A DNA stretch of 64,000 nucleotides from Escherichia coli (GTDB taxonomy: Bacteria; Pseudomonadota; Gammaproteobacteria; Enterobacterales; Enterobacteriaceae). The notes under the pieces are model-generated. The model was not told where the DNA came from. It worked only from the letters and a program-made list of their open reading frames with translations, and made no database searches. The translations under genes and the position numbers were made by a program. Below, piece after piece: positions 51,623 through 54,040 of the stretch (the stretch's first letter is position 1; every line of letters starts with the position of its first letter). Location of the stretch: the NCBI RefSeq assembly GCF_024223415.1, contig NZ_CP100500.1. The stretch is one strand, 5' to 3'.

Positions 51623-52363
51623 ATGAAAAAGGTTTTTGCTGTTTCAGTGGTGGCCGCAGCCTGTGTATTTGCAGCAAATGCAGGTGCTGAGGAAGGTAAA
51701 AGCGGTTTTTATCTGACCGGTAAAGCCGGTACCTCTGTGGTGTCACTTTCAGACCAGCGTTTCCTGTCAGGAGATGAGGAAGAAACGTCAAAGTATAAAG
51801 GCGGCGATGACCATGATACGGTATTCAGTGGTGGTATCGCGGCTGGTTATGATTTTTATCCGCAGTTCAGTATTCCGGTTCGTACAGAACTGGAGTTTTA
51901 CGCTCGTGGAAAAGCTGATTCGAAGTATAACGTAGATAAAGACAGTTGGTCAGGTGGTTACTGGCGTGATGACCTGAAGAATGAGGTGTCAGTCAACACA
52001 CTAATGCTGAATGCGTACTATGACTTCCGGAATGACAGCGCATTCACACCTTGGATATCTGCAGGGATTGGCTACGCCAGAATTCACCAGAAAACAACCG
52101 GTATCAGTACCTGGGATTATGAGTACGGAAGCAGTGGTCGCGAATCGTTGTCACGTTCAGGCTCTGCTGACAACTTCGCATGGAGTCTTGGCGCGGGTGT
52201 CCGCTATGACGTAACCCCGGATATCGCTCTGGACCTCAGCTATCGCTATCTTGATGCAGGTGACAGCAGTGTGAGTTACAAGGACGAGTGGGGCGATAAA
52301 TATAAATCAGAAGTTGATGTTAAAAGTCATGACATCATGCTTGGTATGACTTATAACTTCTGA
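51623..52363 (+). CDS. Outer-membrane beta-barrel protein (OMP_b-brl family; possibly Hek/Tia/PagN-like)
   Basis: 246 aa; signal peptide MKKVFAVSVVAAACVFAANAGA; alternating amphipathic beta-strand pattern; C-terminal ...MTYNF. Confidence 0.7.
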   Translation: MKKVFAVSVVAAACVFAANAGAEEGKSGFYLTGKAGTSVVSLSDQRFLSGDEEETSKYKGGDDHDTVFSGGIAAGYDFYPQFSIPVRTELEFYARGKADSKYNVDKDSWSGGYWRDDLKNEVSVNTLMLNAYYDFRNDSAFTPWISAGIGYARIHQKTTGISTWDYEYGSSGRESLSRSGSADNFAWSLGAGVRYDVTPDIALDLSYRYLDAGDSSVSYKDEWGDKYKSEVDVKSHDIMLGMTYNF

Positions 52364-52537
52364 CGATACTGCTCCTGAGAGATAATTACACATATTCAGT
52401 AATTAAGATATTTATATATCTTCTGCAACTAAACAGAAATACCCTGCAGTAATATACCGCAGGGTTATTTGTTTCACAGGATATTTATGGTTTTTATTAT
52501 CTTATTCCCTTTATAATAATATTACCGATATATTACG

Positions 52538-54040
52538 ATGAATATCAGAAAACTGTTTTGTCCGGGCAACACACCCCGGATTTTATTGTTTTTATTCTTT
52601 TTTGTTGTTTCTGTCATAACCACAATTGCATGCGGATACACTGAGAGGAATGCAACAGGAAATGTGCTGCTTCTGTTTCTCCTTCTGCTCCTTGCACACA
52701 GAAATACCCTCACATCCATTACAGCTCTGTTATTTCTGTTCTGTTGTGCACTGTATGCGCCTGCCGGTATGACGTACGGTAAAATCAACAACAGTTTTAT
52801 TGTCGCGTTGTTGCAGACCACAACTGATGAGGCAGCGGAGTTTACCGGGATGATTCCTGTTTATCATTTTCTGGTCAGTGCCGCGATTCTGGTATTCATG
52901 GTGATTTTCTGGCGGACACACCACCACGGTCACCGTAACTGGCTGGCACTGCTGCTATTCGTATTATGCTCTGTGAACAGCTGGCCGTTGCGGATGGTTA
53001 AAGGAATTGTTGTGGGAACAACTGACACATTGCGTGAAATGCAGCGTTATAAACAACTGAGTCAGCACGGGGCTGACAACTGGAAAATCCTGCCGGGAAC
53101 ACCGTTGTATGACACGATTGTTATCGTTACTGGTGAGAGTGTGCGCAGGGATTATATGTCGGTATATGGCTATCCCGTGCCAACCACACCATGGCTGAAT
53201 ACGGCTCCCGGTTTATTTATTGACGGCTATACATCGGCAGCAGCCAGTACCGTACCTTCCCTGAGCCGGACACTGATTTATGACTATGAGCAGAACCCTG
53301 ACTCCGGCAACAACGTGGTGGCGCTGGCAGCAAAAGCAGGATACAGCACATGGTGGATATCCAATCAGGGAAAACTGGGGGAGCATGATACACGCATCTC
53401 TGTTATTGCTTCTGATGCGGAGCATACCGTTTTCCTCAAGAAAGGCAGCTTTGCTTCCCGTAAAACGGATGACATGTTGTTGTTACAGGAAACAGAACGT
53501 GCACTGGCGGATAAATCCTCTCCGAAGGTGATATTCCTGCACATGATTGGCTCTCATCCGAATCCGTGTGACCGACTTAACTCCTGGCCGAATCATTACC
53601 TGGAGCAGTATCCCCGAAAGATTGCCTGTTACCTCGCCAGCATCAGTAAACTGGATAACTTTCTCGGTCAGCTTGATGGTATCCTTCGCCGGCACTCCCG
53701 TCATTTTGCCATGCTTTACTTTTCTGACCATGGTCTGTCGGTCAGCGACAGTGCTAATCCTGTTCATCATGATGGCCATATACAAGGAGGCTACAGCGTT
53801 CCCCTGATTATTACCGCCAGTGACATCACGTCTCATCAGTCCGTCAGCAGAAAAATCAGTGCCCGTCATTTCGCAGGTATTTTTCAGTGGCTGACCGGCA
53901 TTCGTACTGAAAATATACCGCCATTCAATCCGCTGACAGACGAAGATAATGAACTCATTATGGTTTTTAACGGAGACAGGAATGTACCGGCAGACAGTCT
54001 GAAACCGCAGCCTCTGATTCTTCCGGTCAAGGGAAAATAA
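52538..54040 (+). CDS. Phosphoethanolamine-transferase-family membrane protein (sulfatase-like domain)
   Basis: 500 aa; N-terminal TM segments; C-terminal alkaline-phosphatase-superfamily motifs (...IVIVTGESVRRDY..., ...FLHMIGSHPNP..., ...YFSDHGLS...). Confidence 0.75.
   Translation: MNIRKLFCPGNTPRILLFLFFFVVSVITTIACGYTERNATGNVLLLFLLLLLAHRNTLTSITALLFLFCCALYAPAGMTYGKINNSFIVALLQTTTDEAAEFTGMIPVYHFLVSAAILVFMVIFWRTHHHGHRNWLALLLFVLCSVNSWPLRMVKGIVVGTTDTLREMQRYKQLSQHGADNWKILPGTPLYDTIVIVTGESVRRDYMSVYGYPVPTTPWLNTAPGLFIDGYTSAAASTVPSLSRTLIYDYEQNPDSGNNVVALAAKAGYSTWWISNQGKLGEHDTRISVIASDAEHTVFLKKGSFASRKTDDMLLLQETERALADKSSPKVIFLHMIGSHPNPCDRLNSWPNHYLEQYPRKIACYLASISKLDNFLGQLDGILRRHSRHFAMLYFSDHGLSVSDSANPVHHDGHIQGGYSVPLIITASDITSHQSVSRKISARHFAGIFQWLTGIRTENIPPFNPLTDEDNELIMVFNGDRNVPADSLKPQPLILPVKGK

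Follow-up and report, generated by a model that had tools for sequence, protein, structure and literature searches.

A predicted adhesin gene and a YjgX-type phosphoethanolamine transferase-family gene in a common pathogenicity-island module of Escherichia coli

Results and Discussion

The two adjacent genes at 51623–54040 of a 64-kb stretch of Escherichia coli DNA (the window, i.e., the whole sequence analyzed) are a common, already published E. coli pathogenicity-island module and not an unusual acquisition. The region would correspond to the integrase-proximal module of a pheV/pheU-type island, with the order, counted from the att remnant, of integrase, sisA/shiA-like tetratricopeptide repeat (TPR) gene, yjgX-type phosphoethanolamine (PEtN) transferase gene and hek/hra1-type adhesin gene. 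Taking gene identities, fold, catalytic residues, synteny and distribution as observed, and chemistry, acceptor and transcription pattern as deduced, we consider it quite probable that this island module joins a Hra-family adhesin with a PEtN transferase acting on an envelope acceptor other than lipid A, the two genes being transcribed separately and inherited jointly.

Genomic context of the gene pair

Both open reading frames were confirmed on the plus strand, at 51623–52363 (246 aa) and 52538–54040 (500 aa). The preliminary description of this DNA had predicted two genes here; they are real, with Pfam matches far above chance. Exact sequences of both proteins are present in public collections, where the 90%-identity clusters have 605 members for the small protein and 8941 for the large one. 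In RefSeq the two genes are named ‘outer membrane protein’ and ‘phosphoethanolamine transferase’, an annotation that recurs across over 1000 complete E. coli genomes; the source names in a large protein database say no more than ‘porin family protein’ and ‘phosphoethanolamine transferase’. The following features were mapped in the region:

50764–51135, plus strand: C-terminal fragment of an IS3-family transposase (NCBIfam transpos_IS3, 5.1e-11, partial match)
51508–51544, no strand assigned: OxyR-consensus-like site with two GATC (Dam) sites (consensus match and conserved spacing)
51545–51574, plus strand: promoter-like site TTGAGG-18-TAAAAT (consensus scan)
51623–52363, plus strand: predicted Hra-family (Hek/Hra1-type) outer-membrane protein (OMP) adhesin/invasin gene (Hek/Tia identity, Pfam OMP_b-brl)
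52441–52465, plus strand: terminator-like GC-rich hairpin followed by a T-rich tail (scan and RNA fold)
52473–52500, plus strand: promoter-like site TTCACA-16-TATTAT (consensus scan)
52538–54040, plus strand: YjgX-type PEtN-transferase-family gene, five transmembrane (TM) helices and a periplasmic sulfatase-fold domain (Pfam, AlphaFold, Foldseek)
54399–55472, minus strand: TPR protein gene at the sisA/shiA position (ShiA-like inflammation suppressor; assigned by position)
55698–56963, minus strand: P4-type tyrosine integrase, 421 aa (NCBIfam PRK09692, 7.6e-74)
57161–57183, minus strand: tRNA-Phe 3'-end remnant (att core), right island end (21/23 match to LAA DR1/pheV 3' end)

The P4-type integrase, the IS fragments and the tRNA-Phe 3'-end remnant in the window bear out the earlier view that the pair is island-borne. 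The island end was located via the direct-repeat sequence of LAA, and the chance expectation for the 21/23 match is 0; a scan of the 64-kb window for tRNA genes returned none. From its position only, which matches the place of sisA (ORF2) in LAA, the gene at 54399–55472 was inferred to be sisA/shiA-like. Its counterpart in strain GF60 is annotated in RefSeq as ‘tetratricopeptide repeat protein’, and the PGAP-annotated TPR protein of the module has been equated with SisA (PMC13340028). The IS3-family fragment at 50764–51135 forms the left, IS-scarred side of the module, and the equivalent of this ORF in GF60 bears the RefSeq name ‘integrase core domain-containing protein’.

The gene order integrase, sisA/shiA, ‘sulfatase’, hra-family gene has been published for LAA module I, SE-PAI and PAI II-536. 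ORF1–5 of LAA are int, sisA, a hypothetical gene, a ‘sulfatase’ gene of 1503 bp and hes (PMC5539235, supplement), and SE-PAI has the order int-shiA-orf-tia-subAB2. LAA module I, known from LEE-negative STEC, resembles the window in gene order and spacing: the distance from the OMP stop codon to the integrase is 3335 bp in the window and 3,342 bp in LAA, the transferase ORF measures 1503 bp in both, the integrase has the same length and relative position as ORF1 int, and a pheV-type att core is found 198 bp from the integrase in both, in the window past the integrase start. In contrast to LAA, the window carries an OMP allele of the Hek/Hra1 type, not Hes, and beyond the OMP gene it has IS fragments and PhoX in place of the ato genes of LAA and subAB of SE-PAI. 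The β-barrel signature and the transferase gene next downstream are shared with Hek of 536 PAI II and RS218 and with the Hra family (Hra1, Hes, Tia, Hra2); PAI II-536 differs, however, in having an AAA-domain gene between the transferase and the integrase, where the window has the sisA-like gene. As roughly one complete E. coli genome in five has the pair, which is already on the published maps of LAA, SE-PAI and PAI II-536, its occurrence here matters little in itself.

The predicted outer-membrane adhesin

The first gene was thought to encode an OMP that was possibly Hek/Tia/PagN-like, and it is to the Hek/Tia family that the 246-aa product belongs, with amino-acid identities of 98% to the PAI II-536 protein (named Hek in the review PMC7545054) and 63% to RefSeq-annotated Tia. 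Identity to named members of roughly 60–98% places it in the Hra family, within which a range of 65–90% has been published, and its sequence identifies the OMP as a predicted Hra-family surface adhesin/invasin. Its Pfam profile is OMP_b-brl (5.2e-21), with additional matches to OmpA_membrane and Opacity, and the closest solved protein in a PDB sequence search was Opa60. A signal-peptide-like N-terminus, MKKVFAVSVVAAACVFAANAGA, and a C-terminus ending in the aromatic residue of ...TYNF are those of a small β-barrel OMP.

Published primers were also matched against the gene. The hes-specific forward primer had no match in it (the reverse primer matched with 1 mismatch), so the gene is not hes, and this allele identity was ruled out. 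The hra1 cloning primer likewise found no match in the OMP gene, and the allele was finally typed by its 98% identity to Hek of 536. For the relatives of the window allele, namely Hes, Hra1, Hek and Tia, the literature reports haemagglutination, autoaggregation, adhesion or invasion.

A GATC/OxyR-like element upstream of the adhesin gene

Upstream of the OMP gene, GATC sites occur at 51507 and 51520 in an OxyR-like site. When both strands of the 64-kb window were compared with the OxyR consensus ATAGnTnnnAnCTAT-N7-ATAGnTnnnAnCTAT, segment 51508–51544 scored higher than any other; it agrees at 14/20 positions, a weak absolute score that equals that of the K-12 agn43 site. A GATC spacing of 13 and 9 nt is kept in six loci whose OMPs are 52–100% identical, and these are the only invariant upstream blocks. 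The number of GATC sites varies at fixed spacing, from two in the window to three or four at the other loci. The promoter-like site at 51545–51574, a consensus match only, lies 49 nt 5' of the OMP start codon, and the TTTTAAAAT block is conserved between the hek and tia loci.

The element resembles the agn43 (flu) switch in having the same CGATCG-N6-TCGATCGAT, in which 13 nt separate two GATC sites, and an identical OxyR-consensus score; agn43 encodes an autoaggregation factor, as the adhesin gene is predicted to do. The two differ in placement: the window element is 5' of the promoter-like site, whereas the OxyR site of agn43 lies downstream (3') of the transcription start. The hek locus of PAI II-536, unlike the window, is without the element. 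The literature searched contained no report of hek, hra or tia being controlled by Dam or OxyR. The conserved GATC cluster and the OxyR-like site suggest a candidate Dam-dependent phase switch of the adhesin gene; if Hra-type adhesins were phase-variable like Ag43, their expression and vaccine potential would be judged differently. A third GATC has been lost in the window copy of the element, which is conserved 5' of hek, tia and Salmonella relatives.

Intergenic region

The OMP and transferase genes look like separate transcription units, set apart by a putative hairpin terminator and by another promoter-like site. The hairpin at 52441–52465 has a predicted folding energy of -17.8 kcal/mol (z = -3.96 against shuffled sequences) and is ~98% conserved in the tia locus. 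The site at 52473–52500, 38 nt 5' of the transferase start codon, was the best-scoring promoter-like site of the scan (10/12 positions, consensus match only). The terminator and the promoters were called by consensus matching; the two genes could still be co-transcribed by read-through.

Fold, catalytic residues and proposed chemistry of the transferase

The preliminary description had recognized in the second gene product a 500-aa sulfatase-fold, PEtN transferase-like membrane protein, and this held, with an EptA-type architecture by Pfam and structural matches to EptC and MCR-1. Pfam assigned residues 193–446 to Sulfatase (1.6e-36) and gave a weak match to EptA_B_N (6.9e-5). Hydrophobic segments are confined to residues 9–154, and the AlphaFold model (pLDDT 90.5) has helices at 9–31, 39–53, 57–80, 108–127 and 135–145, i.e., a five-TM N-terminal domain, joined to a C-terminal periplasmic alkaline-phosphatase/sulfatase fold. 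With this model, Foldseek retrieved the catalytic domain of EcEptC (E = 1.9e-19, target-normalised TM-score 0.72) and aligned full-length MCR-1 and NmEptA over about 545 columns. EcEptC was also the best PDB sequence match (1.2e-17), in an alignment that brings the GES, T and SDHG motifs into register.

Mapping of the active site, which had been proposed as a check, located all six PEtN-transferase catalytic residues. These residues, E200, T238, H335, H340, D397 and H398, comprise the catalytic Thr, the metal-binding Glu/Asp/His and two conserved His; in alignments with EptC and MCR-1 they coincide with the GE(T/S), T, H...H and DH motifs, and none of them varies among 39 homologues, which reach as low as 22% identity. 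Among intact transferase alleles dN/dS is ~0.2. On these sequence data, the protein is an intact YjgX-type enzyme that appears to be under purifying selection.

The YjgX-type protein is accordingly modeled here as a putative inner-membrane PEtN transferase with intact catalytic residues, and its chemistry is proposed by analogy with EptA, EptC and MCR-1. Phosphatidylethanolamine would donate PEtN to Thr238, which would lie in a Zn site formed by E200, D397 and H398 together with H335 and H340; from there the enzyme would hand the group on, at the periplasmic face, to an acceptor. As a best guess, we favor for this acceptor an envelope glycan, for instance a sugar of the LPS core, over a lipid A phosphate. 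The nearest characterised relative is EptC, at an identity of only about 22–26% over the catalytic domain, and the acceptor is a guess because no experiment on a YjgX-type enzyme was found in the literature searched. That literature gave no function for yjgX, which is mentioned as a false-positive control in a defensin screen (the K-12 pseudogene) and as a neutral integration site.

YjgX orthologues and their distribution

The transferase gene is 91.5% identical in nucleotides, over query positions 314–1487, to a K-12 pseudogene that adjoins intB and leuX (a P4-type integrase and a tRNA-Leu gene) and that we take, from the K-12 map, to be yjgX. The name YjgX is used for the ORF in PMC6174562. 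The protein is 97% identical in amino acids to the 536 copy and 96% to the tia-linked copy; together with the K-12 match, the 1503-bp length shared with LAA ORF4 and the position, these values place it among the YjgX orthologues. The K-12 copy, in the KpLE2 element at leuX, is thus orthologous DNA that likewise lies beside a P4-type integrase and a tRNA gene, but it lacks the N-terminus, is frameshifted and has an internal stop, whereas in the window the gene is whole and codes for every catalytic residue. By sequence, the transferase gene is an unbroken version of yjgX, a pseudogene in K-12. Orthology to a housekeeping OpgE/YhbX-type gene, named beforehand as the finding that would count against a noteworthy enzyme, was not seen, the K-12 orthologue being this island-borne pseudogene.

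Among 5426 complete E. coli genomes searched, yjgX sequences were present in 2973 and the OMP gene in 1311, and near-full-length transferase copies were found in 1450. About half of the genomes with any yjgX match have truncated copies only, so the enzyme is not under selection everywhere. The YjgX-type enzyme is widespread in pathogenic E. coli, with K-12 as a natural null. A published ‘hes-sisA’ deletion mutant also removed the transferase gene (PMC13340028), and for this reason the virulence and biofilm phenotypes assigned to hes and sisA in that study may partly belong to the transferase.

An alternative to the reading given above is that the transferase is a backbone gene of integrative elements, altering the LPS core against phage adsorption or conjugative-pilus recognition, or against host cationic peptides or serum, and that its linkage to the adhesin is a matter of hitch-hiking beside the integrase. 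We regard this as rather unlikely. Linkage to a P4-type integrase is commoner for this gene than linkage to the OMP gene; it occurs beside intB without an OMP gene in K-12 and is found in up to 5 places per genome, yet its frequent pseudogenisation speaks against a strong general benefit. A 52%-identity homologue is located in the leading/exclusion region of large conjugative plasmids, near hok, SNase and an exclusion protein, and mobile elements often carry LPS-modifying genes. The Lpt-O plasmid is an example of the latter (PMC3458804), but Lpt-O is unrelated in sequence to the transferase (BLASTP E = 0.62).

The pair as a unit

The two genes are inherited together as one ~2.4-kb unit despite apparently separate transcription units. 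At least 80% of the pair is present in 1054/5426 complete E. coli genomes, and both genes lie in one contiguous place in 1054 of the 1111 genomes with a hek-type OMP. Identity to other loci begins near the OMP start codon and stops after transferase codon 496. The ~2.4-kb pair is without any GATC site, in both genes alike, and the OMP–transferase order is kept in Salmonella and metagenome loci at 52–57% identity.

The enzyme might be a dedicated partner of the adhesin, with PEtN on the LPS core, another surface glycan or the OMP tuning or enabling Hek/Tia-mediated aggregation, proteoglycan binding or invasion. Order, orientation and a gap of ~174–210 nt are the same in the hek, hes, tia, Salmonella and metagenome loci, although the genes are separated by the terminator-like hairpin. 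The recombination breakpoints are tight around the pair, GATC is absent throughout, and a 62%-identity allele keeps a sulfatase-family gene downstream past a 4.7-kb insertion; in contrast, homologues of 39–52% identity in Erwinia, Enterobacter lignolyticus and plasmids have no OMP gene, a Providencia OMP homologue has no transferase nearby, and yjgX is far from confined to the genomes with the OMP (2973 against only 1311). Moreover, the Hes and Hra1 phenotypes came from the cloned OMP gene alone in HB101 (PMC5539235). We therefore consider a dedicated partnership quite unlikely, and obligate enzyme–adhesin coupling was down-weighted since the 39–52%-identity relatives stand alone.

Very doubtful, in our estimate, is the further conjecture that hek-yjgX is a co-selected, phase-variable surface-remodelling module, in which a conserved Dam/OxyR-type switch would turn the adhesin on and off and the always-linked YjgX would modify the LPS core, another surface glycan or the adhesin with PEtN and thereby adjust aggregation and binding to the host. 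If this is true, the last E. coli PEtN transferase that is still uncharacterised would have an acceptor of a new class.

Comparison with MCR, Ept and Lpt-O enzymes

EptC/CptA is a heptose-I phosphate PEtN transferase, and EptA and MCR-1 are lipid A PEtN transferases. The window protein is like all of these in its five-TM and sulfatase-fold architecture, its Thr nucleophile and the aligned Zn-binding Glu/Asp/His, and unlike them in its identity of 16–26% and its length (500 aa against models of 523–577 residues). Similarity to EptA and MCR had already been called limited, and the NCBIfam scores agree: MCR-family models gave at most 34 bits against cut-offs of 1075–1250 (best MCR-10, 33.9 vs. 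1250), the EptA models 58.4 vs. 561 and 39 vs. 660, the EptB model 49.2 vs. 493 and the CptA model 105.7 vs. 404. By these cut-offs the transferase is not a member of the MCR family, and it reaches none of the equivalog/subfamily cut-offs of EptC/CptA, EptA or EptB. In the PDB sequence search, MCR-1 matched at 3.6e-4.

That the transferase is a cryptic mcr-like determinant, placing PEtN on lipid A phosphate and giving colistin resistance if mobilised or over-expressed, is highly improbable and was rejected on HMM scores and prevalence: it does share architecture and catalytic residues with MCR-1 and EptA, lies on a mobile island and has ~52%-identity relatives on large conjugative plasmids, but the MCR and EptA models score it far below their cut-offs, MCR-1 does no better than the E value above, and intact copies occur in ~27% of complete E. 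coli genomes. Colistin resistance is rare in E. coli, and at such a frequency of intact copies the native enzyme therefore cannot confer it. With an acceptor guessed to be other than lipid A phosphate, no mcr-like colistin resistance is expected either, and nothing ties the pair to this phenotype. The mcr-type significance implied in the preliminary description thus falls away, with scores of at most 34 against cut-offs of at least 1075 and a pair that is a common, already described island module.

Lpt-O/Opt of S. flexneri (pSFxv_2) was also considered as the closest characterised relative of the transferase and rejected (BLASTP E = 0.62 to Lpt-O, 1523–3043, minus strand). Small-plasmid matches at ~30% identity to the transferase form an unnamed group of their own, separate from Lpt-O.

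Identity of the Paired Genes

The preliminary description placed two open reading frames at 51623-54040, a small outer-membrane protein (OMP), possibly Hek/Tia/PagN-like, and a 500-aa sulfatase-fold phosphoethanolamine (PEtN)-transferase-like membrane protein; both are present exactly as stated, and both family assignments hold. The pair and its flanking features are as follows.

51507-51544: GATC cluster within an OxyR-consensus-like site, immediately 5' of the promoter-like site for the adhesin gene
51545-51574: promoter-like site, directly after the OxyR-like site
51623-52363 (+): OMP, 246 aa
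52441-52465: hairpin (-17.8 kcal/mol, z = -3.96)
52473-52500: promoter-like site
52538-54040 (+): transferase, 500 aa

The OMP was matched by Pfam OMP_b-brl (5.2e-21) and more weakly by OmpA_membrane, Opacity and OmpW, with the Neisseria Opa60 barrel as its best solved relative. It is 98% identical (241/246 residues) to the PAI II OMP of E. coli 536, encoded beside leuX and listed under the name Hek (review PMC7545054), and 63% identical to RefSeq-annotated Tia, which fits the range of 65-90% published for the Hra family of Hra1, Hek, Hes, Tia and Hra2 (PMC5539235). The protein is thus predicted to be a Hek-type adhesin; haemagglutination, autoaggregation, biofilm formation, adhesion and invasion are on record for close relatives (PMC5539235). 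Hes itself was ruled out, the hes-specific forward primer having no match in the gene. The exact sequence is present in public collections (90%-identity cluster of 605). In the nearest genome copy, from strain GF60 (L001 12223-12232), the ATGAAAAAGG run at codons 2-3 is one A shorter, which throws the beginning of the gene out of frame, and the RefSeq CDS starts further in; this loss may be an inactivating slip.

The transferase was matched by Pfam Sulfatase (1.6e-36, residues 193-446) and weakly by EptA_B_N (6.9e-5, residues 44-172), with hydrophobic segments within residues 9-154. Its exact sequence is likewise public, in a 90%-identity cluster of 8941. The gene shares 91.5% DNA identity with a truncated and frameshifted K-12 'phosphoethanolamine transferase' pseudogene, which we take to be yjgX of the KpLE2 element on the K-12 map. 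The pseudogene is flanked by IS2 and IS4 and adjoins a P4-type integrase and tRNA-Leu. Island-borne ORFs of this type have been named YjgX (PMC6174562).

AlphaFold modeling (mean pLDDT 90.5, alignment of 39 homologues) gave as top structural matches the EcEptC catalytic domain (E = 1.9e-19), full-length MCR-1 and NmEptA, the latter two aligned over ~545 columns. Sequence alignments to EptC and MCR-1 put E200 at their GE(S/T) Glu, T238 at the Thr nucleophile, H335 and H340 at the H...H pair, and D397 and H398 at the DH pair, all six invariant in 39 family members with identity down to 22%. Given this fold, these residues, a dN/dS of ~0.2 among intact alleles and an intact copy in the window, PEtN-transferase activity of the protein is very probable.

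Island Context and Distribution

Read from the right, the module runs from a tRNA-Phe remnant through a P4-type integrase (421 aa), a TPR protein in the sisA/shiA place, the transferase, the OMP, and IS3 and ABC-permease fragments to PhoX. Coordinates available for the surroundings are:

57161-57183: tRNA-Phe 3'-end remnant (att core), 21/23 match, 198 bp past the integrase
57.2-64 kb: second, CP4-57-like island past the att remnant, with ParDE, DUF4942 and CbtA/YeeU (GF60 annotation)
39669-43493, 2785-4755, 37798-39357 and 48317-50296: other island cargo, in turn a 1274-aa autotransporter (RefSeq in GF60: S6 family peptidase, SPATE), a TonB-dependent haem receptor, an AbgT-family transporter and the Tat-signal PhoX phosphatase

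Remnants of IS66, IS3 and IS21 are interspersed among the cargo genes, and a scan of the 64-kb window found no tRNA genes. The layout is that published for LAA module I, whose ORF1-5 comprise int, sisA, a hypothetical ORF, a 1503-bp 'sulfatase' and hes (PMC5539235); from OMP stop to integrase the distance is 3335 bp in the window and 3,342 bp in LAA. In 536 and a tia locus, an AAA-domain gene takes the place of sisA. We consider it rather unlikely that the transferase belongs to the island backbone and would modify the surface to serve exclusion or host resistance.

In an LAA-positive STEC, the published 'hes-sisA' deletion took out a 5,485-bp region that includes the transferase gene and part of atoS (PMC13340028), so the phenotypes credited to hes and sisA may be confounded.

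Among 5426 complete E. coli genomes, the 2.8-kb pair was at least 80% covered in 1054, the hek-type OMP occurred in 1111, and the transferase gene alone in 1450, or 2973 when truncated remnants are counted, with up to five places per genome. The pair has thus been described before and is common; what still makes it of interest is the acceptor used by so widespread an enzyme, together with a candidate epigenetic switch.

The Pair as a Unit

Similarity among the window, 536 and the tia locus starts near the OMP start codon and stops exactly after transferase codon 496 (window 54025-54040), a breakpoint that yields two alternative C-termini, VKGK in sisA-type islands and DRR in AAA-gene-type islands (536, tia locus). 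Within the unit, the hek and tia OMP alleles differ by a dS of ~1.37 (window 51623-52300 vs L003 6448-7130), against only 0.03-0.10 for the adjacent transferase alleles, and the intergenic region is ~98% identical. The OMP alleles are thus ancient, and the 5' ~550 nt of the gene acts like an old allelic cassette set within conserved surroundings of recent origin.

The same order, with a gap of ~174-210 nt, recurs in two metagenome contigs and one Salmonella contig (transferase 57%, OMP 52% identical). A 62%-identity OMP allele (P0164; 1003 members in its cluster) is parted from the downstream sulfatase-family gene by an inserted 4.7-kb cassette (L014 5739-10470; L015 2022-6753). The cassette, which looks like a defence-type insert, codes for a WYL/WCX protein, proteins of 359 and 523 aa, and a CxxCxxCC ORF.

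This synteny could be taken to mean that the transferase is dedicated to coupling with the adhesin. Homologues at 39-52% identity, however, stand alone in Erwinia, Enterobacter lignolyticus and large conjugative plasmids, so the linkage characterises the island-borne clade rather than the enzyme family; the hairpin and promoter-like site between the genes suggest separate transcription units. Dedicated coupling is possible, yet decidedly doubtful. The 52%-identity homologue of large E. coli plasmids (511 aa, 1955 cluster members; L004 6001-7536; plasmid matches H99-H104) neighbours hok/gef, SNase, an exclusion-determining protein and DotM_C, with no adjacent OMP gene.

Proposed Acceptor of the Transferase

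The transferase scored 106 bits against the CptA/EptC model (cut-off 404), 58 and 39 against EptA (561 and 660), 49 against EptB (493) and at most 34 against all MCR models (1075-1250), and is placed by these profiles outside all characterised groups. The limited similarity to EptA/MCR suggested earlier is thus confirmed, and the colistin-resistance angle finds no support; an mcr-like role is very unlikely, despite the structural match to MCR-1. Lpt-O of S. flexneri was also rejected as a relative, being unrelated at BLASTP level.

Beyond the observed fold, residues and synteny of the pair, we infer both chemistry and acceptor. PEtN would be moved from phosphatidylethanolamine onto Thr238 and then handed, on the periplasmic side, to an acceptor in the envelope. 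Since the enzyme is closest to EptC and further removed from the lipid A enzymes, this acceptor is most likely a sugar of the LPS core or another glycan. A literature search found no experiments on the acceptor of a YjgX-type transferase.

GATC Sites Upstream of and within the Pair

Only two GATC sites occur in 51100-54400, 116 and 103 nt 5' of the OMP start codon. Clusters upstream of OMP genes were also found in L001, L003, L007, L014 and L021; the loci from beyond the window (those of GF60, tia, the 62% allele, Salmonella and metagenome) carry three or four sites with the same 13 and 9 nt spacing, and in a six-locus alignment these sites are the only invariant upstream blocks. Scored against the OxyR consensus, 51508-51544 outranks every other position of the window (14/20). 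The element resembles the Dam/OxyR switch of K-12 agn43, whose site reaches an equal score and has CGATCG-N6-TCGATCGAT in common with it. A conserved GATC cluster in an OxyR-like site beside a promoter-like site suggests, at the sequence level, that Hra-family adhesins may be phase-variable in a Dam-dependent manner, an idea not found in the literature searched. The element occurs in ~183 complete E. coli genomes and is absent from the 536-type hek locus.

The two-gene unit itself (51623-54040, 2418 nt) contains no GATC, against 9.6 expected under a first-order Markov model; zero was reached in 0.05% of simulations. The tia and 536 loci likewise have none in the unit, and the Salmonella and metagenome relatives have two and one, respectively.
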